NCBI RefSeq assembly: GCF_000027125.1
Contig: NC_017626.1
DNA: 64,000 nt
Strand: one strand, 5' to 3'
Source of the DNA: Escherichia coli 042
Lineage (GTDB): Bacteria > Pseudomonadota > Gammaproteobacteria > Enterobacterales > Enterobacteriaceae
Both the position numbers and the translations under genes were made by a program. Each line of letters opens with the position of its first letter. The stretch's first letter is position 1. Under the pieces are notes generated by a model. That model saw nothing but the letters and a program-made list of their open reading frames with translations. It was not told where the DNA came from and ran no database searches. This document shows positions 2,118 to 61,343 of the stretch, in pieces.

Positions 2118-3470
2118 TTAATGTGCTTTTTTAAGCTCAGCGATGCAGTCGGCAAAATTTGGCAGCCATTTCTCGTGCGCCAGAATCATCTCGCGTGCCA
2201 GCAGCTCAGCATCGCGATCGGAATGCACCAACGGACTAAGGTTTAGCGCCAGTAACACATCGTTAAATTCTCCGCTAAGTGCAGCGTTGCTGGCAGCAAT
2301 CTCGAAGCCTTTAATGGTGTGAATCAGCCCCATCACTTTATCATCGAAATGCGTAATGCGCGGATGTGGCGTCGCGCCATCGCGCCCCAGCGTACAGGTC
2401 ATTTCTACCGCCCAGTCTGCCGGAATATTATCAATATGCCCATGATGCGGGATATTAACGTAATGTTCAGCTTGCTTGTCGTTGTAGATAGCGTTGATCA
2501 CTTCGCACGCTGCATCAGAGTAATAAGCCCCACCGCGCTGTTCCAGTTCTTTCGGCTTAACTTTCAACTCCGGGTTTTTATACAGCTCAAAAAGTTGTTT
2601 CTCGACTTTCTGTACTACCTGTGCTCGTGCGCCGCCTTTGTAGTATTCGCCCATTTCAATAGCCAGCATCTCTTTTTGCTTGAAGTAATAAAGCAAATAA
2701 GAACACGGCAACAGATTCAGAGAACGAATTAAGCCTTCGCTAAATGGCAGATCGAAAATATTTTTAACGCCAGATGCTTTTAACTGCCCGGATGCCACAC
2801 CATCAAGCAATTCGGCAAAGCGTGATTTGCCATTTACCAGCACATCTTTAATGAACACCATATGGTTGAGGCCGAACAGATCGATAGATAAATCATCGCT
2901 GTCTTTCAGCATCAGAACATCGCGAATAAACATCTTCATGCCGATCGGAATATTACACACGCCGATAAAGCGTTTAAATCCGGTATGACGATAAACGGCT
3001 TCAGTGACCATTCCCGCCGGGTTAGTGAAGTTAATCACCCATGCATTCGGACAAAGTTCTTCGACATCTTTTACGATATCAAAAATCACCGGAATGGTAC
3101 GCAGACCTTTAAACAGACCGCCCGCGCCGTTAGTTTCCTGACCAAGATAACCATGACTTAATGGAATACGTTCATCCAGTTCGCGCGCCGGTAATTGGCC
3201 TACGCGCAGTTGGGTAGTAACGAAATCAGCATCTTTCAATGCTTCGCGGCGATCCAGCGTTTTATAAAGCTTCATCGGGACGCCAGCGTTATCAATCATC
3301 CGTTGGCAGAGATCAAAAATAATATCCAGTTTAGCTTTACCACCTTCGACATCCACCAGCCATAATTCGCTGACCGGCAATTCGTGATAACGCTTAATAA
3401 ATCCTTCCAGTAATTCCGGGGTATAGCTGCTCCCGCCACCAATAGTGACGACTTTTAATTTCTGGCTCAT
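2118..3470 (-). CDS. chbF: 6-phospho-beta-glucosidase (family 4 glycoside hydrolase, NAD/Mn dependent)
   Basis: ORF track 2118..3539 trimmed to in-frame ATG at 3470 (MSQKLKVVTIGGGSSY, Rossmann-type N-terminus) preceded by GGGAGA Shine-Dalgarno; gives 450 aa. Confidence 0.9.
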   Translation of the reverse strand: MSQKLKVVTIGGGSSYTPELLEGFIKRYHELPVSELWLVDVEGGKAKLDIIFDLCQRMIDNAGVPMKLYKTLDRREALKDADFVTTQLRVGQLPARELDERIPLSHGYLGQETNGAGGLFKGLRTIPVIFDIVKDVEELCPNAWVINFTNPAGMVTEAVYRHTGFKRFIGVCNIPIGMKMFIRDVLMLKDSDDLSIDLFGLNHMVFIKDVLVNGKSRFAELLDGVASGQLKASGVKNIFDLPFSEGLIRSLNLLPCSYLLYYFKQKEMLAIEMGEYYKGGARAQVVQKVEKQLFELYKNPELKVKPKELEQRGGAYYSDAACEVINAIYNDKQAEHYVNIPHHGHIDNIPADWAVEMTCTLGRDGATPHPRITHFDDKVMGLIHTIKGFEIAASNAALSGEFNDVLLALNLSPLVHSDRDAELLAREMILAHEKWLPNFADCIAELKKAH

Positions 3471-3573
3471 AATTTCTCCCTTCAGTACAGAATACTGATA
3501 TCTGGCATATCTGCCCCCCGGACATAAATAATCCAGCAACAGGACAGATATGTGAATTGTCAGGTATAACGAC

Positions 3574-4416
3574 TTACTGATTAAATTCAGTCAATTTCTT
3601 ACGATAGCTCTTAGGCGTAAAGGACGTTAATTTCTTAAACGTTTTAATAAACAAACTCGGGCTACTATAACCGGCCTCAAACGCAATATCCGTCACTGAA
3701 TAGTTGGTCATTTCCAGTTGTTTTTTGGCAAAATTAATACGGATTTCATTAATAATCTGCATTGGCGTTTTGCCATAATATCGTTGAGTCGCTCGCGTCA
3801 AATATTCCTGTGATTTGGCTGACAACGTCACCATATTCTCCAGCGCCGATTCACTAAACTGCTCTTTATCATGCATCTTTTCTACCGTACTTTTCAGCCA
3901 CTGCGGTACATCATCAATCACCTGTTCTTCGCGGTAATGACGTAAACGGTTAATGACATAAAAAGTAACCATCTCAACAAACTCTTCCAGCCCTGTTTCG
4001 CGGAAATTCAATGAAGAAATCACTGTTTCCACATAGGTGAGAAAAGCGTTATTGGTCCGGTATACCTGCGAAGCAACAAAGCAATAAGGCAACAACGGCA
4101 GGTAATGCTGCTCAAAAAAGCGTTTACTGATCCCAACGTTCAATATGCGCGTGGCACCAAACTCATAAAAACTTTGATGGTGCGAACCTAACGGAATAAA
4201 AACAAAATCGCCCCGTTCCAGTAACACGCGCTTACCGTTAATCTCCTGGAAATAACGCCCGGTTAATACCAGAGTAAATTCATAATAGTCGTGCTGATGC
4301 AGTCCGCTGATACTCTCAGTTTTGTTGTAGATAAACACATGGAAGTTTTTGCCATTAAACAACTGCTGTTCTCGGGCAGTGGCAATTTCCGGCGCGTTAA
4401 TCACTGGCTGCATCAT
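3574..4416 (-). CDS. chbR: AraC-family dual regulator of the chb operon
   Basis: 280 aa ORF with C-terminal AraC-type HTH region; position inside chb operon. Confidence 0.9.
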
Positions 4417-4423
4417 CGACTCC

Positions 4424-4774
4424 TTATGCCTTCAGTTTTTCATGAAGCTCAATTAATTCAGTAATCAGTTCACGCGCAAGCATGGACGTCATTAAATGAT
4501 CCTGAGCGTGGACCAGCACCAGACTCACTTTCATCTTACCTTCGCCCGCATCGCCTTCAATCAGTTTCGTCTGTACCAGATGCGCTTCATTCAATGCCAT
4601 CCGCGACTGATCCATCATCGCTTTTGCTGCGGCAAAATCGCCCTGCTTCGCCTGTTTCAGTGCCGCATACGCCAAGCTGCGCGCTTGTCCGGAGTTGATG
4701 ATAAGCCCCATCACCACTTCTTCCAGCTCTTCAGCTTCTGTTTGCGTATCGGGAATGTTATCGAGATCCATCAT
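4424..4774 (-). CDS. chbA: PTS chitobiose-specific EIIA component
   Basis: 116 aa ORF, lactose/cellobiose-family EIIA-like, operon position. Confidence 0.9.
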
Positions 4775-10923: not shown

Positions 10924-16987
<6,064 letters not shown>

Positions 16988-28738: not shown

Positions 28739-30682
28739 TTAAATCCTTAGCAGACGTTTGCAATTTGCAGCCGTTTGTTCTGCATCCTGGATATCCTGTT
28801 CCGACATTAAGCATCGCAACGCATCTTTTTCAATCCAGGGGTTGTTATTTCCGGCAATTGTTAGCCACATCCATGCTTGTTTATTATCAATTTTAGTGCC
28901 TGTCCCCTGAGCATACATTGCCGCAGTCTGGTGCTGCGCCTCGGTCGACCCTAAACGCGCCGCTTTTTCGTACCAGTGCAGCGCATGATTTTCATCTTTT
29001 ATGGTATCTTTTGTACCGTACAGATACATTTCGGCTAACAAAAATATCGCCTCTATTTGCCCACGCTGCGCTGCACCAGTAATCCATTGAATAGCCTCTG
29101 CGTTATTTTCAGGATCATCATTGTTGGTTAAATAATATTTCCCCAATTCATACATGGCCTCCCCTGCCCCATCTGTCCCATTTTTTGCTACTTTGGTAAA
29201 CCAGTACAGCGCTTTTTCCTGGTCCTGTAGAATACTCTCACTTTCGCTATACAACCTGGCAGTATGATATTGCGCATATAAATATCCCTGTTCTGCTGAT
29301 TGCAAAAGCCAACGATGGGCCTGTACCTTATCACGTGCCACACCAATCCCGTGTATATACATTTGTCCCAAATCATACTGGGCACGCTCATGTCCTTGTG
29401 TGGCGGCAGATAAATACCACCGTAATGCTTCTTCATAATTTCGTAATGGCTCAACAGCGAAGCGTGAGATACGGGCAATCTCATATTGCGCAGATGCGTT
29501 GCCATTTTTGGCAGCAAGTAAAAACCATTTTCGTGCCTCACTAATATTCTTATCCGTGCCCCTTCCATCGCGATACATGATGCCCAGCGCATACTGAGCA
29601 TCGATAACATTATGCTGCGCGGCGCGGGTAAACCAGTTAAAGGCTAATTTTAGATCCTGTGAAACCTCATCACCTTCATAATACATTTTGCCAAGAGAAT
29701 ACCAGGCAAGTGAATAGCCTTGCTCTGCAGCATGTAAGCAGGACTGGAATACAGAAGATGGATAATAAAAAAGACCTTTTAATTTTATGGCATTTAGCAA
29801 CTTTTTATATCCACTATGATGTTGCATTGCTAAATTATTGAAGCGTTCTGTTAATTTCCACTTGCGAATCATTTTTTCTTTTCGCCAGGAATATGATAAA
29901 CGCTCTATTAACAATGCCATATAGTTGTCTGATAGTTCAAATCCAGCGACTTTATTTAATACTGCGATATCAAACCATTTCAGGCTCTCTTCATTATCCT
30001 TTAATGATTGATAAATCGTAGCCATTTCCTTCCCGTTTTCCATTTCTTCCAGTGGAGACGAGTTACTGCCAAAGAAAGGGGTAATTTGTTTTTCGATTCG
30101 TGAATAAAGAAGACAACTTTCGTTAATTTCTGTCTGGATAGCTGGTTGACGGCTGCCTGCAACTAAATGCCATCTGAACGTTTGTGCAGCAGCGAGAGTT
30201 AATAATGGCCGGAATACCCGATGAAGATGCAGTAATAACGCTTCTTCAAAGCTCATTCGTGAGCTGAGATCTTTTTTCTCAAGGAAAGATAACGCCTTAG
30301 CAAGTTGCATGGGGGCGTGTTCGGGGGTTGCTTCATTCTCCTCACAGAGCATATCCAGCACGGCTTGCCAGGTGAATTCCTCCTCTGATTTAATAGTGAC
30401 ATCAGGAAGTGGATGACCAGAAAAGGTGTTGAGTGCGCGAAATGTCATCACAGGACGAGGATGAACAATACCCCTGGATATATTGATCGGTTGCTCTTCT
30501 TCCTCTTCTTGCCACTGATCTTCGTCGTCATAACGTAAAGCCTGTTCATAAGCATCGTGCAATTGTTGCCAGGCTTCGGGAGAATCTTCCGGGCGGCAAT
30601 TTTTTACCAGTTGCGCATAACGACGCTTAATATCTCGTTCTTCCGCGCCAGGTTGTAAACCTAATATTTCCCAGCAGTTCAT
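28739..30682 (-). CDS. J-like domain / Sel1-repeat protein, putative co-chaperone of the adjacent Hsp70
   Basis: ORF track 28739..30697 trimmed to ATG at 30682, which overlaps the upstream Hsp70 stop as ATGA. N-terminus CWEILGLQPGAEERDIKRRYAQLVKNCRPEDSPEAWQQLHDAYEQAL resembles a J domain but has RPE where HPD is expected; acidic linker; C-terminal half contains multiple Sel1-like repeats (AQYALGIMYRDGRGTDKNISEARKWFLLAAKNG, AQYDLGQMYIHGIGVARDKVQAHRWLLQSAEQG). Not a K-12 gene I recognise at this locus. Confidence 0.7.
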   Translation of the reverse strand: MNCWEILGLQPGAEERDIKRRYAQLVKNCRPEDSPEAWQQLHDAYEQALRYDDEDQWQEEEEEQPINISRGIVHPRPVMTFRALNTFSGHPLPDVTIKSEEEFTWQAVLDMLCEENEATPEHAPMQLAKALSFLEKKDLSSRMSFEEALLLHLHRVFRPLLTLAAAQTFRWHLVAGSRQPAIQTEINESCLLYSRIEKQITPFFGSNSSPLEEMENGKEMATIYQSLKDNEESLKWFDIAVLNKVAGFELSDNYMALLIERLSYSWRKEKMIRKWKLTERFNNLAMQHHSGYKKLLNAIKLKGLFYYPSSVFQSCLHAAEQGYSLAWYSLGKMYYEGDEVSQDLKLAFNWFTRAAQHNVIDAQYALGIMYRDGRGTDKNISEARKWFLLAAKNGNASAQYEIARISRFAVEPLRNYEEALRWYLSAATQGHERAQYDLGQMYIHGIGVARDKVQAHRWLLQSAEQGYLYAQYHTARLYSESESILQDQEKALYWFTKVAKNGTDGAGEAMYELGKYYLTNNDDPENNAEAIQWITGAAQRGQIEAIFLLAEMYLYGTKDTIKDENHALHWYEKAARLGSTEAQHQTAAMYAQGTGTKIDNKQAWMWLTIAGNNNPWIEKDALRCLMSEQDIQDAEQTAANCKRLLRI

Positions 30683-32379
30683 TGTAGACGCTCCCATTCC
30701 AGAGAGTCTAATGTCGGTTCAACTTTAGCCCGAAAATCAGCTAGTTGATCAGGATCCTGCTTCTCGAGTAGATAACTGAATTGACGAGAGCAATTGCTTA
30801 TCCAGTCTCGTGTTTCCGCCAGGGTGAGTTGATAGAGATTATCAAGACGGGCAATAAAGGCCTGGTTTATCTGTTCATCGCGTGGGTGAATTTTTAACAG
30901 GCTTAATTTGGACAACGACTGCTGTATTTGTTCTGCCGTTAATGCCCCTGGGTTCTGTTCAATAACCAGACTATTTTTAGCCCCTGTCAGTGGCACGCTG
31001 ATATCGACATCAAGAATACCGTTAATGTCGTACGTAAAACGAACATCAATACGCACATTACCGGCCGGTTTTGGCGGAACATTCACTGACAACTCCGCAA
31101 GGAAAATATTATCACCCACCATCCTGCTTTCACCCTGGTAGATTTTAAAATTAACCTCTGTTTGTTGATCATGTGCCGTATAAAAGGCACGAACGCGACT
31201 ACAAGGAATACTTCGGTTACGCTCAATAACGGGTGCAAAATAGCCTGATTCGCGGGTATGCCCCAGCGATTTAGAGGTATCAACGCCAAGTGTATAAGGG
31301 CAAACATCGGTCACTACTACATCTTGTAATTCGCTGTGCCGCGCTTTAAGTGCGGCCTGAATAGCCGCGCCCTGAGCAATGACTTCATCCGGGTTTAAAT
31401 GCATTGCCGGTATACGACCAAAAAGTTGTGTCACAAGTTTGCGAATCAGCGGCATACGTGTAGTGCCACCCACAAGAACAACCTGGTCTAATTGGCTAAT
31501 ATTAATTTTTGCATCGCGAATTGCCCGTTCCAGTGGCATACGGATTCGCTCGAAAAATGCCTGTAATAAAAATTCAAATTTTTCTGTGGTCAGATGCCAG
31601 TAATATCGCCTTCCTTCAATCTCCACACTGAAAGTTGCTTCGTCACGCATACTAAGCACGCGTTTGACACGCTCAGCCTCAATGCGTAAATGGCGTTGGA
31701 GTGTCGGTTCACGCCATTCAATATTTTCAGGAAGATCCATACGTGAGCAATATGCATCGATCAGGATATCGACAATATCTTCACCACCTAAAAAGTTATC
31801 CCCGGCACTGGCTCGTACTTCCATAATATTGTCAAACAACTCCAGTATGGAGATATCAAACGTACCACCACCTAAATCGAATACCAAAAATTGATGTTCA
31901 TCATCTTTATTATGCAAACCATACGCCAGTGCAGCGGCGGTTGGTTCGTTAATTAAACGTTCGACGTTTAAGCCTGCCATTGAAGCTGCCAATTTTGTTG
32001 CTTTGCGTTGCACATCACCAAAATAAGCAGGTACGCTAATTACTGCTTCTGTTATCTCTTCACCTAAATAGCTTTCAGCATCATCTTTTAGCTGACGCAG
32101 TATCAGCGATGAGAGTTCCTCTGCCCGAAATTCACGTCCGCCCAATTTAAACGTCTTTGATGTGCCCATCATGCGTTTAAAATTGGCTGCACAGTTTTGT
32201 GGTTTGATGAGTTGCAGGTCACGAGCTGCCTCCCCTGTCAAAACCATACCATCTTCGTCAACACAAACTACGCTGGGTGTTAAAAACTTGCCTAACGCAT
32301 TGGGGATCAGTTCACTTTGTCCATTTCGCCATACCGCTGCCAGACTGTTAGTCGTCCCGAGGTCAATACCGATAATCAT
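30679..32379 (-). CDS. Hsp70-family ATPase, HscC-like
   Basis: ORF track 30679..32394 (TTG) trimmed to ATG at 32379 with AAGAGGA Shine-Dalgarno. Hsp70 motifs present: IGIDLGTTNS (phosphate 1), FDLGGGTFD (phosphate 2), VLVGGTTRMP (adenosine), beta-sandwich substrate-binding region VTDVCPYTLGVDT; about 566 aa, shorter than DnaK. Confidence 0.75.
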   Translation of the reverse strand: MIIGIDLGTTNSLAAVWRNGQSELIPNALGKFLTPSVVCVDEDGMVLTGEAARDLQLIKPQNCAANFKRMMGTSKTFKLGGREFRAEELSSLILRQLKDDAESYLGEEITEAVISVPAYFGDVQRKATKLAASMAGLNVERLINEPTAAALAYGLHNKDDEHQFLVFDLGGGTFDISILELFDNIMEVRASAGDNFLGGEDIVDILIDAYCSRMDLPENIEWREPTLQRHLRIEAERVKRVLSMRDEATFSVEIEGRRYYWHLTTEKFEFLLQAFFERIRMPLERAIRDAKINISQLDQVVLVGGTTRMPLIRKLVTQLFGRIPAMHLNPDEVIAQGAAIQAALKARHSELQDVVVTDVCPYTLGVDTSKSLGHTRESGYFAPVIERNRSIPCSRVRAFYTAHDQQTEVNFKIYQGESRMVGDNIFLAELSVNVPPKPAGNVRIDVRFTYDINGILDVDISVPLTGAKNSLVIEQNPGALTAEQIQQSLSKLSLLKIHPRDEQINQAFIARLDNLYQLTLAETRDWISNCSRQFSYLLEKQDPDQLADFRAKVEPTLDSLEWERLQ

Positions 32380-32394
32380 AATTATCCTCTTCAA

Positions 32395-58050: not shown

Positions 58051-58196
58051 AACTATCAGCCGGGTCATTATCGCCTGGCTGATTTTTAGCTCACTGTAAA
58101 TTATCTCATTTATTACATACATTAGCTTACAATCGCTTTAAATATGACAGCATAACCTTTACACAATTTAGTTCCAGAAAACAATCATTCGGAAAA

Positions 58197-59672
58197 ATGA
58201 TTCGGTCAACACGTGTTTCCCTGGGGTTATTCTTTAAATATTTTTTATCGTTAACGAAAATTGATCCTGGTCAAAACTATATATCTCTGCCATCAATAAA
58301 ATCCAGCACTCACATTGCTCTCCTTTTTATGGCTTCTATGGGTACACAAAAATTAAAAGCTCAAGGCTTTTTTATTTTCAGCTTATTGCTGACGTTAATT
58401 TTATTTTGCATTACTACCTTATATAACGAAAACACGAATGTAAAACTCATCCCACAGATGAATTACCTGATGGTTGTTGTGGCTTTGTTTTTCCTTAACG
58501 CCGTCATTTTTCTTTTCATGTTAATGAAGTATTTCACTAACAAACAAATTTTACCAACACTCATTTTAAGCCTTGCATTTTTAAGTGGCCTTATCTATTT
58601 AGTTGAAACCATTGTAATTATCCATAAACCAATCAACGGCAGTACACTGATCCAGACAAAGTCGAATGATGTTTCTATTTTCTATATTTTCCGCCAACTC
58701 AGTTTCATTTGTTTAACCTCGCTGGCGCTCTTTTGTTATGGGAAAGACAACATCCTTGACAACAATAAGAAAAAAACTGGCATTCTGTTACTGGCGCTGA
58801 TTCCTTTTTTAGTTTTTCCCCTTCTGGCACACAATCTGAGCAGTTATAACGCTGACTATTCTTTGTATGTCGTCGATTACTGTCCGGACAACCATACTGC
58901 GACCTGGGGAATCAACTATACAAAAATATTGGTTTGTCTGTGGGCATTTTTACTGTTCTTTATTATCATGCGTACACGATTAGCCAGCGAACTATGGCCG
59001 TTAATAGCATTATTATGTCTGGCATCGCTATGCTGCAACTTACTTCTACTAACTCTGGATGAGTATAATTACACCATCTGGTATATCAGTCGCGGGATTG
59101 AAGTCTCCAGTAAACTGTTTGTTGTGTCTTTTCTGATTTATAACATTTTTCAGGAACTGCAACTCTCCAGCAAACTGGCAGTTCATGATGTGCTGACCAA
59201 TATTTATAATCGGCGCTACTTTTTCAACAGCGTAGAGTCATTATTGTCGCGACCTGTTGTTAAGGACTTCTGTGTCATGCTGGTTGATATTAATCAGTTC
59301 AAACGCATCAATGCCCAATGGGGACATCGTGTGGGTGATAAAGTGCTGGTTTCAATTGTCGATATTATCCAGCAAAGCATCCGCCCCGATGATATTTTAG
59401 CGCGACTGGAGGGTGAGGTGTTTGGCTTGCTATTTACCGAACTCAATAGTGCCCAGGCAAAAATCATTGCGGAACGTATGCGTAAAAATGTCGAACTCCT
59501 GACCGGCTTTAGTAACAGATATGATGTTCCTGAGCAAATGACCATCAGTATTGGCACGGTTTTTTCAACGGGTGACACACGTAATATCTCGCTTGTCATG
59601 ACGGAAGCAGATAAAGCCTTACGCGAAGCGAAAAGCGAGGGGGGCAACAAAGTGATTATTCATCATATTTAA
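58197..59672 (+). CDS. yeaI: Membrane-anchored degenerate GGDEF-domain protein
   Basis: 491 aa ORF; hydrophobic N-terminal half; C-terminal GGDEF-type domain in which the signature reads EGEVF (ARLEGEVFGLLF); notably AT-rich gene. Confidence 0.85.
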   Translation: MIRSTRVSLGLFFKYFLSLTKIDPGQNYISLPSIKSSTHIALLFMASMGTQKLKAQGFFIFSLLLTLILFCITTLYNENTNVKLIPQMNYLMVVVALFFLNAVIFLFMLMKYFTNKQILPTLILSLAFLSGLIYLVETIVIIHKPINGSTLIQTKSNDVSIFYIFRQLSFICLTSLALFCYGKDNILDNNKKKTGILLLALIPFLVFPLLAHNLSSYNADYSLYVVDYCPDNHTATWGINYTKILVCLWAFLLFFIIMRTRLASELWPLIALLCLASLCCNLLLLTLDEYNYTIWYISRGIEVSSKLFVVSFLIYNIFQELQLSSKLAVHDVLTNIYNRRYFFNSVESLLSRPVVKDFCVMLVDINQFKRINAQWGHRVGDKVLVSIVDIIQQSIRPDDILARLEGEVFGLLFTELNSAQAKIIAERMRKNVELLTGFSNRYDVPEQMTISIGTVFSTGDTRNISLVMTEADKALREAKSEGGNKVIIHHI

Positions 59673-59852
59673 GTGCAAAAATATTCAGAGCCATGCTTTT
59701 TGCGTGGCTTTTGCATACAATTTATTACTATTACCCCTAAATTTCCCCTCCCCAGCGGCGCAGAGATGAGTATAATTAGCGCCCCTGTGCCAGGCCGCAA
59801 TCGAACTTTATCTGGTTTTCTCGTTTCACTAACCGAAGGAGTGCCATTTATC

Positions 59853-61343
59853 ATGAAATTGCACCATAGAATGCTCCGGCATTTTATCGCCGCAAGTGTC
59901 ATTGTGCTGACATCTTCCTTCCTTATTTTTGAACTTGTCGCCAGTGACAGAGCAATGAGTGCCTATCTGCGCTATATCGTGCAGAGAGCAGACTCCTCCT
60001 TTCTTTATGATAAGTATCAGAATCAGAGTATTGCCGCGCATGTGATGCGCGCTCTCGCTGCTGAGCAGTCGGAAGTGTCGCCAGAACAGCGGCGCACCAT
60101 CTGCGAGGCTTTTGAGTCTGCAAATAATACCCATGGCTTAAACCTGACTGCCCATAAATACCCTGGCTTACGCGGCACACTACAAACCGCATCCACTGAC
60201 TGCGACACAATTGTGGAAGCTGCAGCACTATTACCCGCTTTTGATCAGGCAGTGGAAGGCAACCGCCACCAGGATGATTACGGTTCAGGTCTTGGGATGG
60301 CCGAAGAGAAATTTCACTATTATCTCGATCTCAATGACCGCTATGTCTATTTTTATGAGCCGGTTAATGTTGAATACTTTGCGATGAATAACTGGTCTTT
60401 CCTGCAGTCAGGAAGTATTGGCATCGATCGCAAAGATATTGAAAAGGTATTTACCGGGCGTACCGTTTTATCGAGCATTTACCAGGATCAGCGTACTAAA
60501 CAGAACGTGATGAGTTTGCTGACGCCGGTATATGTCGCAGGGCAGCTAAAAGGGATTGTGCTGCTGGATATTAACAAAAACAATCTGCGGAATATCTTTT
60601 ACACTCATGACCGCCCTCTCCTCTGGCGTTTTCTCAATGTCACGCTAACCGATACCGATTCGGGGCGCGACATTATCATCAACCAGAGCGAAGATAATCT
60701 GTTCCAGTATGTCAGTTACGTCCATGACTTACCGGGCGGCATTCGTGTCTCGTTATCCATTGATATTCTTTACTTTATCACGTCTTCGTGGAAAAGCGTT
60801 CTGTTCTGGATTTTGACGGCGTTAATTTTGCTGAATATGGTGCGGATGCACTTCCGTTTATACCAAAATGTGTCGCGAGAAAATATTAGTGATGCGATGA
60901 CTGGACTGTATAATCGCAAAATTTTAACCCCTGAACTGGAGCAGCGGTTGCAAAAACTGGTGCAATCCGGTTCTTCGGTGATGTTTATTGCAATTGACAT
61001 GGACAAGTTAAAGCAAATAAATGACACCCTCGGTCATCAGGAGGGGGATTTAGCGATTACGTTATTAGCTCAGGCGATTAAACAGTCGATTCGTAAAAGT
61101 GATTATGCCATCCGACTCGGTGGCGATGAATTCTGCATCATTCTTGTCGATTCGACGCCGCAAATTGCAGCACAACTGCCTGAACGTATCGAAAAACGTC
61201 TGCAACATATCGCGCCGCAGAAAGAGATCGGCTTCTCTTCCGGTATTTACGCGATGAAAGAAAACGATACGTTACATGATGCGTATAAAGCTTCCGATGA
61301 GCGTTTATATGTCAATAAGCAGAACAAAAACAGCCGTTCATGA
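59853..61343 (+). CDS. yeaJ: Diguanylate cyclase with intact GGDEF motif
   Basis: ORF track 59673..61343 trimmed to ATG at 59853 preceded by AAGGAG; C-terminal GGDEF domain with intact motif (AIRLGGDEFCIILVD); 496 aa. Confidence 0.85.
   Translation: MKLHHRMLRHFIAASVIVLTSSFLIFELVASDRAMSAYLRYIVQRADSSFLYDKYQNQSIAAHVMRALAAEQSEVSPEQRRTICEAFESANNTHGLNLTAHKYPGLRGTLQTASTDCDTIVEAAALLPAFDQAVEGNRHQDDYGSGLGMAEEKFHYYLDLNDRYVYFYEPVNVEYFAMNNWSFLQSGSIGIDRKDIEKVFTGRTVLSSIYQDQRTKQNVMSLLTPVYVAGQLKGIVLLDINKNNLRNIFYTHDRPLLWRFLNVTLTDTDSGRDIIINQSEDNLFQYVSYVHDLPGGIRVSLSIDILYFITSSWKSVLFWILTALILLNMVRMHFRLYQNVSRENISDAMTGLYNRKILTPELEQRLQKLVQSGSSVMFIAIDMDKLKQINDTLGHQEGDLAITLLAQAIKQSIRKSDYAIRLGGDEFCIILVDSTPQIAAQLPERIEKRLQHIAPQKEIGFSSGIYAMKENDTLHDAYKASDERLYVNKQNKNSRS

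Follow-up and report, generated by a model that had tools for sequence, protein, structure and literature searches.

In PopA of Caulobacter and PelD of P. aeruginosa, a GGDEF domain with a dead A-site has kept the RxxD motif and binds c-di-GMP, a former enzyme having become an effector. CdgI (YeaI, b1785 in E. coli K-12) would make a textbook-style case of such an enzyme-turned-receptor, but its N-terminal domain and output differ from those of PopA and PelD, and the proteins are not orthologous.

Both cdgI and its neighbor dgcJ (yeaJ, b1786) are well-studied E. coli genes, the former encoding a c-di-GMP-binding protein devoid of catalysis and the latter an active c-di-GMP synthase. There are 19 GGDEF domains in E. 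coli, and the purified GGDEF domain of CdgI binds c-di-GMP (Fig. S4B of the cited study), contacts several of the others and is toxic when overproduced; the heteromeric contacts are strong, and CdgI could not be detected in cells under standard conditions (PMC5635695). The EGEVF and RPDD motifs and the MASE4 domain of K-12 CdgI have been published (PMC5635695, PMC4287979) and are the same in the protein described here; the sequence KNAHDREGEVF of YeaI is tabulated in PMC3484386, and a full-text literature search with the string 'EGEVF' returned no match. Published data put the normal silence of the gene down to H-NS binding and to repression by CsrA. According to the literature, the closest homologues of CdgI are DgcX and DgcT (YcdT), with which it shares its full-length architecture and forms one MASE4-GGDEF subfamily (PMC10459773). 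DgcT and DgcX keep GGEEF, ND and GRN and are active, whereas CdgI lacks all three; the loci differ as well, with dgcT lying beside pgaABCD and dgcX beside prophages. In published work, DgcJ supplies NfrB locally with c-di-GMP and is required for infection by phage N4; its catalysis is needed in vivo, and it interacts directly with NfrB (PMC8669469, PMC8669472).

The window analyzed here is a stretch of 64,000 nucleotides from E. coli 042. An initial annotation, made from the sequence alone, had described two tandem GGDEF genes, yeaI with EGEVF and yeaJ with an intact GGDEF, and both motifs were confirmed, in adjacent genes on the same strand. The two open reading frames lie on the plus strand, as do all features given below, at 58197-59672 and 59853-61343; RefSeq names them cdgI and dgcJ, flanked by yeaH and yeaK, and the stretch is 99.9% identical to the annotated cdgI-dgcJ. 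The gene order yeaH-cdgI-dgcJ-yeaK is that of K-12, to which cdgI is 98.4% identical at the nucleotide level; compared with the main E. coli cluster, the encoded protein shows 98% identity. The two genes belong to the core genome: of 5,426 complete E. coli genomes, more than 99% carry each of them at nearly full length. Directly after the yeaH stop codon, a terminator-like hairpin at 58055-58083 (an 11-pair stem with six G-C pairs, followed by TTTTT) is predicted to set cdgI apart from yeaGH. No strong terminator was found in the spacer between cdgI and dgcJ (59673-59852; 180 bp, 45% GC). The GTG at 59673 was rejected as the dgcJ start: it is merely the first start codon after the stop, the spacer-crossing reading frame is mechanical, and the true start is the ATG at 59853. 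With 19 GGDEF domains among approximately 4,700 features, about 0.07 adjacent GGDEF pairs are expected by chance, and two such genes side by side are in themselves no more than mildly unusual. Beyond the window, some 4 kb downstream of the pair, follows dgcP, a third gene with a GGDEF domain.

Domains and motifs of CdgI and DgcJ

A Pfam search and an inspection of the I-sites were among the checks proposed in the initial annotation; both proteins matched the GGDEF domain (PF00990) above cutoff, and the RxxD motif is intact in CdgI (RPDD) and DgcJ (RKSD). The large N-terminal membrane or periplasmic regions that had been described were also seen in both. As annotated, cdgI (58197-59672; RefSeq, Pfam and homologue alignments) encodes 491 amino acids, starting with a region of approximately seven to eight hydrophobic segments without a large loop, in which a MASE4 integral-membrane sensor domain was recognized (amino acids 88 to 319, 58458-59153; PF17158, E = 1.6e-48, 165.7 bits versus a cutoff of 28.4). 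This is followed by the degenerate GGDEF domain (amino acids 328 to 485, 59178-59651; PF00990, E = 9e-45, 152.7 bits versus a cutoff of 23.8).

When aligned with 15 MASE4 homologues and with three GGEEF cyclases of solved structure, CdgI has EGEVF (amino acids 405 to 409, 59409-59423), NA (N372-A373, 59310-59315) and GGN (G482-G483-N484) in place of the GGEEF, ND and GRN of active proteins, with G483 (59643-59645) replacing the conserved Arg, so that the GG[D/E]EF signature, ND and GRN of a competent cyclase are all absent. Solved active-type cyclases and MASE4 paralogues keep the consensus at a further position, at which LY is changed to LR (R476) in CdgI. Residues D364, N372, D381 and K479 and the third residue of the signature, E407, are kept. 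The I-site RPDD (R396-D399, 59382-59393) lies five residues upstream of the A-site, with ILARL between them; R396 and D399 are invariant in 16 homologues, R403 is likewise invariant in the alignments, and the third I-site arginine, R427 (in 'AER'), is intact. In one Escherichia lineage, MOD1-EC7003, HPDD replaces RPDD, and the I-site is hence not universally retained. Judged from these alignments, the CdgI GGDEF domain has lost catalysis and kept its fold and the RxxD I-site. The expectation that the EGEVF protein is unlikely to make c-di-GMP is thus supported by the G-to-E, E-to-V, ND-to-NA, GRN-to-GGN and LY-to-LR changes, and its proposed role as a possible receptor or scaffold is in line with the intact I-site and the published c-di-GMP binding and GGDEF contacts (PMC5635695). 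Our literature search turned up no in vitro test of CdgI for cyclase activity.

The dgcJ gene (59853-61343) encodes 496 amino acids and is assigned as an active diguanylate cyclase on the basis of an NCBIfam equivalog (NF040885, 746.6 bits versus a cutoff of 500) and published mutants. The protein has one transmembrane segment at residues 11 to 29, a periplasmic stretch of approximately 280 residues and a second transmembrane segment at residues 312 to 334. Its periplasmic sensor domain is of the GAPES1 (dCache-like) type (amino acids 31 to 304, 59943-60764; PF17155, E = 3e-150), and the published ligand-pocket residues Y168, Y210, D212 and D239 (PMC8669472) are present. The catalytic GGDEF domain (amino acids 346 to 494, 60888-61334; Pfam, E = 3e-40, 137.9 bits versus 23.8) carries INDTLGH, with 'ND' kept, the I-site RKSD (amino acids 414 to 417, 61092-61103), the linking residues YAIRL and the A-site GGDEF (amino acids 423 to 427, 61119-61133). 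The intactness of this motif agrees with published work in which the A-site mutants GGAAF and DE425NQ lost function (PMC8669469, PMC8669472). The GAPES1 and GGDEF domains, RKSD and the ligand pocket are those of K-12 DgcJ, with no notable difference. Some laboratory strains carry IS1 in dgcJ; the copy in the window is intact.

Composition, distribution and selection of cdgI

The AT-richness of cdgI pointed out in the initial annotation was borne out, as it is the most AT-rich of the 52 genes in the window, with a GC content of 39.0% versus a mean of 50.5% (z = -2.7) and a GC3 of 43.5%, the third lowest (z = -1.6). Hydrophobicity alone does not explain this, because the similarly hydrophobic membrane proteins YnjC, YeaL, YdjZ and ChbC are encoded at 49 to 56% GC. 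The older horizontal acquisition proposed from this composition is plausible though not proven: the base composition, a patchy distribution, H-NS binding reported in the literature and predictions of foreign origin (PMC3661553) speak for it, and the alternative is ancestral presence with several losses. The contents of the yeaH-dgcJ slot vary between genera; Salmonella, several Citrobacter species, Klebsiella and Kluyvera have dgcJ but no cdgI, and their slot holds other cargo or nothing. Searches with tblastn and blastn at permissive thresholds of such empty or otherwise filled slots in S. enterica arizonae, C. koseri, C. amalonaticus and Kluyvera gave no significant cdgI remnants, and loss therefore cannot be distinguished from a gene that was never present. 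The analysis revealed neither a donor of cdgI nor a mobility gene or flanking repeat. An insertion would predate the Escherichia radiation.

In some Citrobacter-like lineages, positional orthologues in the context yeaG-yeaH-[MASE4-GGDEF]-dgcJ-yeaK keep GGEEF, ND and GRN; a GGEEF orthologue is present in Citrobacter sp. Awk 4. Inside the degenerate clade, the signature reads EGEVF, DGEVF, EGEEF, EGNVF or EGKRF, and the A-site of CdgI appears from this drift to be released from constraint. Across Escherichia species, dN/dS of cdgI is 0.08 to 0.10 in the MASE4 half and the GGDEF half alike, values which indicate purifying selection on the dead domain and a gene that is still functional. Among 5,426 genomes, 5,408 (99.7%) carry it at nearly full length. 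The suspicion that E. coli contains a separate, divergent class of cdgI alleles, raised by 'E. coli E69' with 89% protein identity, was rejected: all 5,418 RefSeq matches (5,418/5,418) are at least 95% identical, and dS is comparable in the genes flanking E69 cdgI, so that E69 represents a divergent Escherichia lineage.

Readings of the gene pair

It is likely, in our view, that the locus holds two independent adjacent c-di-GMP genes, an active dgcJ and a catalytically dead, receptor-like cdgI, and not a local duplication. The term tandem paralogs used in the initial annotation holds for the adjacency and the common GGDEF domain but not for a tandem duplication. A duplication followed, in one copy, by exchange of the sensor domain and later loss of catalysis could account for two adjacent genes on the same strand with similar lengths (491 and 496 amino acids) and a C-terminal GGDEF domain in common; however, CdgI and DgcJ align over only 153 residues, at 28% identity and confined to the GGDEF domain, while the full-length homology of CdgI is to DgcT (37% identity over 449 residues, the closest among the paralogues compared), so that neither neighbor is the nearest paralogue of the other across most of the protein. 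Moreover, the CdgI GGDEF domain scores 66 bits with the NCBIfam model of DgcJ, lower than with the models PRK09894 (DgcZ-length; 101 bits), DgcN (99 bits) and DgcQ (84 bits), and the presence of dgcJ without cdgI in the four groups named above also argues against a duplication, which we regard as highly improbable. It is unlikely that CdgI, with its EGEVF signature, is still a diguanylate cyclase of low or conditional activity and works through a rise in c-di-GMP, even if E407, D364, N372, D381 and K479 are kept. Cyclase activity of the EGEVF protein, the finding named in the initial annotation as speaking against its reading, has been claimed: Sanchez-Torres 2011 is cited in PMC6824119 for yeaI raising c-di-GMP in BW25113 and in PMC3484386 for 'verified diguanylate cyclase activity' of YeaI. 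As far as can be established from these citing papers, the claim concerns in vivo c-di-GMP levels and not an enzyme assay, and a drop in c-di-GMP upon deletion can come about indirectly, through lost protein-protein regulation. WspR complements the biofilm defect of a yeaI deletion in no-salt LB but does not complement the deletion in glycerol medium (PMC3484386). The sequence evidence stands against activity, with four independent changes at catalytic or substrate-binding positions (G405E, E408V, D373A and R483G) and a signature that drifts freely among Escherichia lineages, which is unexpected under catalytic constraint; the Hengge and Roemling groups class CdgI as inactive.

At the other extreme, cdgI could be what is left of a cyclase gene gained by horizontal transfer, silent, roleless and decaying, in effect a functional pseudogene. 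The degenerate active site, H-NS binding at cdgI (PMC3661553), the lack of detectable protein under standard conditions (PMC5635695) and the deletion of the gene in S. flexneri (PMC11327459) would fit, but the selection analysis largely refutes this reading, and the open reading frame intact in 99.7% of genomes, the conserved I-site and the motility and biofilm phenotypes reported for deletion and transposon mutants leave it extremely improbable. A more elaborate idea makes CdgI a c-di-GMP-gated 'anti-cyclase' dedicated to DgcJ: once released from silencing, it would form a membrane heterodimer with DgcJ, shutting off the local DgcJ-to-NfrB signal. The N4-receptor glycan would then be off, phage sensitivity would be modulated, and the conserved adjacency would reflect functional coupling and not history. 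It is compatible with cdgI-type genes having been found only beside dgcJ, with the binding of the CdgI GGDEF domain to several GGDEF domains (PMC5635695) and with the joint loss of both genes in S. flexneri (PMC11327459), yet we consider it quite unlikely.

In the favored scheme of two independent genes, the residue loss and I-site retention of CdgI are read from the sequence, while c-di-GMP binding and the DgcJ part come from the literature. Before Escherichia diverged, a member of the DgcT/DgcX/YeaI family that was still a MASE4-GGEEF cyclase would have entered, or already held, the yeaH-dgcJ slot, and it would then have degenerated in the Escherichia-proximal lineage. DgcJ acts, according to the literature, as a membrane-anchored cyclase whose GAPES1/dCache domain senses a nutritional cue and whose c-di-GMP acts locally on the glycosyltransferase NfrB. 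CdgI may be a c-di-GMP-responsive receptor or decoy subunit that, when expressed, binds other cyclases at their GGDEF domains to give non-productive heteromers, and a membrane signal sensed by MASE4, together with c-di-GMP occupancy of CdgI, may modulate those cyclases; that CdgI might inhibit through heteromers is a published hypothesis.

The reading of the initial annotation is thus supported, and most of its claims were already published. New, if minor, are the GGEEF motif in positional orthologues of some Citrobacter-like lineages, which provides a natural active/inactive pair, the purifying selection on a dead domain (dN/dS of about 0.1), the probably misannotated cdgI start and the variable yeaH-dgcJ slot; these small additions may help work on the physiological role of CdgI. 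The main value lies in a degenerate enzyme being recognizable from raw sequence, and the significance is otherwise small.

Start codon and leader of cdgI

The true cdgI start probably lies 44 to 47 codons downstream of the annotated one at 58197, with the conserved coding core beginning at M45 (58329) or M48 (58338). Codons 1 to 44 have a dN/dS of 1.1 to 1.2 and contain a frameshift in strain E69; E. whittamii has TTG, and the L006 lineage lacks an ATG. M1 of DgcT aligns with M48 of CdgI. The upstream and leader region spans 58084-58337, in which the annotated codons 1 to 44 or 47 (58197-58337) are probably untranslated, and conserved nucleotide blocks within the leader suggest a regulatory function. 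A promoter scan gave seven sites versus 7.9 expected from shuffled sequence, with no enrichment, and the promoter-like site at 58158-58185 is therefore a lead only. RstA has been reported to bind the yeaI promoter (PMC6824119). Compared with the cluster representative, CdgI of the window has few allelic substitutions, for example, Q3R, I7V, M9L, V46A and S57G, and none of them affects a motif. Most lie in the probably untranslated N-terminal extension.

The GGDEF pair and the active site of CdgI

The window is E. coli chromosome, and its segment 57900-61500, annotated in RefSeq as yeaH, cdgI, dgcJ, and yeaK, is 99.9% identical to strain MLI106K3. Pfam searches, which the initial annotation had proposed as a check, identified a GGDEF domain in both proteins of interest. 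CdgI (YeaI; 58197-59672, + strand; 491 amino acids as annotated) combines a MASE4 domain (amino acids 88-319; E=1.6e-48) with a GGDEF domain (amino acids 328-485; E=9e-45). DgcJ (YeaJ; 59853-61343, + strand; 496 amino acids) has a GAPES1 domain (amino acids 31-304; E=3e-150) and a GGDEF domain matched by profile (amino acids 346-494), and scores 746.6 bits against the NCBIfam DgcJ equivalog (cutoff, 500). A GTG at 59673 was rejected as the dgcJ start because it is a mechanical ORF start; the gene begins at the ATG at 59853. The I-site and signature read RPDD-ILARL-EGEVF in CdgI (amino acids 396-409) and RKSD-YAIRL-GGDEF in DgcJ (amino acids 414-427). The initial annotation had described yeaI as carrying EGEVF in place of GGDEF and the adjacent yeaJ as intact; ORF coordinates, domain matches, and motif strings therefore show this observation to be right in every particular.

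A third GGDEF gene, dgcP (yeaP), lies approximately 4 kb past the window end (13628-14652 of retrieved locus L001), ten genes 3' of cdgI, so that three GGDEF genes form a loose cluster; in MLI106K3, the closest strain, dgcP is annotated as frameshifted. A Terrisporobacter mayombei assembly includes a 429-bp contig (L024, 1-429) that is 99% identical to E. coli dgcJ and almost certainly reflects contamination with E. coli DNA.

Three comparisons were concordant on the changes in CdgI: HMMER alignments against three solved cyclases of the GGEEF type, a 16-sequence alignment of MASE4-GGDEF homologues, and a pairwise comparison with K-12 DgcT, a family fellow with the GGEEF-type residues that CdgI has lost. 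These are G405E and E408V in the signature, A373 for the D of the cyclase "ND," G483 for the R of "GRN," and R476 for the Y of "ALYEAK." In work on PleD (attributed to Chan 2004 and Christen 2006), the signature glutamates and a C-terminal Lys/Arg reportedly serve metal and phosphate binding. Since D364, N372, D381, R403, and K479 are retained, the fold and guanine pocket of CdgI look preserved at the sequence level. All 16 aligned sequences carry R396 and D399 of the I-site, and CdgI also has the third I-site arginine (R427, within "AER"). Taken together, the substitutions at conserved positions support the suggestion that the EGEVF protein probably cannot make c-di-GMP. The same pattern appears in a published table, with KNAHDREGEVF for yeaI versus the consensus KNDHDRGGDEF (PMC3484386).

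Both the observation, which is accurate, and its interpretation, which is supported, have already been published, the proteins being known as CdgI and DgcJ, and the additions made here are incremental. Sarenko et al. 2017 (PMC5635695) described CdgI as a GGDEF protein that is degenerate and has kept its I-site intact; its purified GGDEF domain binds c-di-GMP, and it makes strong heteromeric contacts with several other GGDEF domains. These data and the intact I-site support the suggested receptor or scaffold role. The protein was undetectable under standard conditions and toxic on overexpression, and those authors proposed that it inhibits cyclases via heteromers, modulated by c-di-GMP. Richter 2014 and Cimdins-Ahne 2023 placed CdgI, DgcT, and DgcX in one MASE4-GGDEF family and termed CdgI catalytically nonfunctional. 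There is dissent, however: Sanchez-Torres 2011, as cited by others, is credited with showing that yeaI raises c-di-GMP in vivo (PMC6824119) and with "verified" cyclase activity of YeaI (PMC3484386). In Spurbeck 2012 (PMC3484386), a yeaI deletion could be complemented with WspR, a heterologous cyclase, in no-salt LB but not in glycerol medium. No in vitro assay of CdgI turned up in our literature search. As for DgcJ, it is an active cyclase whose function is abolished by the A-site mutations GGAAF and DE425NQ; it binds NfrB directly and is specifically needed for phage N4 infection (PMC8669469, PMC8669472). The published DgcJ ligand-pocket residues Y168, Y210, D212, and D239 (PMC8669472) are all present in the window copy.

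Maintenance of cdgI and its start codon

The dead GGDEF domain of CdgI is clearly maintained. In Nei-Gojobori comparisons with other Escherichia lineages, dN/dS was 0.08-0.10 for cdgI, with similar values for the MASE4 half (0.08-0.10) and the degenerate GGDEF half (0.07-0.10), compared with 0.03-0.04 for dgcJ and 0.01 for yeaH. At least 80% of full-length cdgI is present in 5,408 of 5,426 complete E. coli genomes, always at 95% nucleotide identity or higher (dgcJ, 5,372 genomes at the same coverage). A pseudogene was therefore rejected.

The annotated 44 to 47 N-terminal codons (58197-58337) evolve like noncoding sequence. Over the first 44, dN/dS is 1.1-1.2 versus E1V33 and E. whittamii, and changes fall evenly across codon positions; the region is frameshifted in E69, has TTG in E. 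whittamii, and lacks the ATG in metagenomic locus L006. Homologues outside E. coli are called at 443-448 amino acids, and both the ATG at M45 (58329) and that at M48 (58338) are invariant, the latter being where DgcT M1 aligns. Translation probably begins at M45 or M48. Within 58197-58328, blocks of nucleotides are more conserved than synonymous sites of cdgI, pointing to a possible regulatory leader. Just past yeaH is a strong terminator-like hairpin (58055-58083), and a promoter-like site lies 5' of cdgI (58158-58185), such sites being no commoner in the region than in shuffled sequence.

Origin of cdgI and the yeaH-dgcJ junction

The genes had been called tandem paralogues, which holds only loosely, insofar as every GGDEF domain is homologous to the others. 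A local duplication is not supported, because BLASTP aligned CdgI and DgcJ over just 153 residues (28% identity), CdgI matches DgcT at full length (37% over 449 residues), and its GGDEF domain scores 66 bits against the NCBIfam DgcJ model, below the DgcZ-length PRK09894, DgcN, and DgcQ models.

We surveyed the junction by homologue search, contig look-ups, and one DgcJ scan of species-representative genomes. A cdgI-type gene lies between yeaH and dgcJ in every sampled Escherichia lineage (E. coli, E. whittamii, sp. E1V33, sp. MOD1-EC7003, E. albertii, and the divergent "E. coli E69") and in a few Citrobacter-like lineages (Citrobacter sp. Awk 4 [L003], a relative [L005], and a metagenomic lineage [L006]), all within a common yeaG-yeaH-X-dgcJ-yeaK-yeaL context. 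In L003 and L005 the orthologue (57-61% identical) retains GGEEF, ND, and GRN; in L006 (77% identical) it has EGEVF. The signature has drifted across the degenerate clade (EGEVF, DGEVF, EGEEF, EGNVF, EGKRF), and RxxD is constant except for HPDD in MOD1-EC7003, whose gene (L027, 3050-4525) is 97% identical to the window allele and has "NT" for "NA."

Across Enterobacteriaceae the junction is a variable slot that is empty or holds an AT-rich spacer or unrelated cargo, by genus (L011 203-863; L016 3005-4000; L018 2425-4000; L023/L028 2152-4000; L029 1109-4000; L012 3860-4000). In C. amalonaticus, C. sedlakii, and Kluyvera genomosp. 1 the slot is empty, spanning 141-146 bp, and in S. enterica arizonae it is a 661-bp noncoding spacer (35% GC). 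Read from translation alone, the cargo is methyltransferase-like in C. koseri, a glycosyltransferase-like ORF of 385-399 amino acids in the K. oxytoca group, a LysR-like ORF accompanied by a small membrane ORF in Kluyvera georgiana and genomosp. 3, and an AT-rich ABC-transporter-like gene in K. intermedia. No cdgI remnant was detected in the slots of S. enterica arizonae, C. koseri, C. amalonaticus, or Kluyvera.

As initially noted, cdgI is AT-rich: at 39.0% GC it is the lowest of 52 window genes (z=-2.7; GC3, 43.5%, z=-1.6), and equally hydrophobic proteins are encoded at 49-56% GC. All positional orthologues, GGEEF ones included, are as AT-rich (36-39% versus 44-51% in the flanks); the bias is long-standing and stable. 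In Table 1 of PMC3661553, a "promoter island" is placed inside yeaI; on our reading of the legend, H-NS binds this island in every ChIP study considered, and GIST, Nakamura et al., and Lawrence & Ochman all predict yeaI as foreign. Given the composition, these data, and the variable slot, the proposed ancient acquisition is plausible and also fits the gene's silence, although no donor or mobility signature was found for cdgI. Its presence in both Escherichia and Citrobacter-like lineages implies one of two histories: an old insertion with later losses, or exchange into the slot on repeated occasions. In L006, cdgI (1626-2972) is nearer the E. coli copy than the adjacent dgcJ (3155-4645) is (77% versus 68% amino acid identity; dN 0.16, with 0.11 in the MASE4 half, versus 0.25), reversing the usual rate ranking and hinting at lateral exchange of cdgI, in whole or in part.

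An accessory insert between gdhA and topB

Elsewhere in the window, a two-gene accessory insert (28739-32394, - strand) separates gdhA and topB. It encodes a 652-amino-acid J-domain protein with five Sel1 repeats (28739-30697, - strand) and a 571-amino-acid Hsp70-family protein (30679-32394, - strand), with no convincing PADLOC defense-system match. The otherwise closest strain lacks the insert, and of 5,426 complete E. coli genomes only 351 carry at least 80% of its 4.4 kb.
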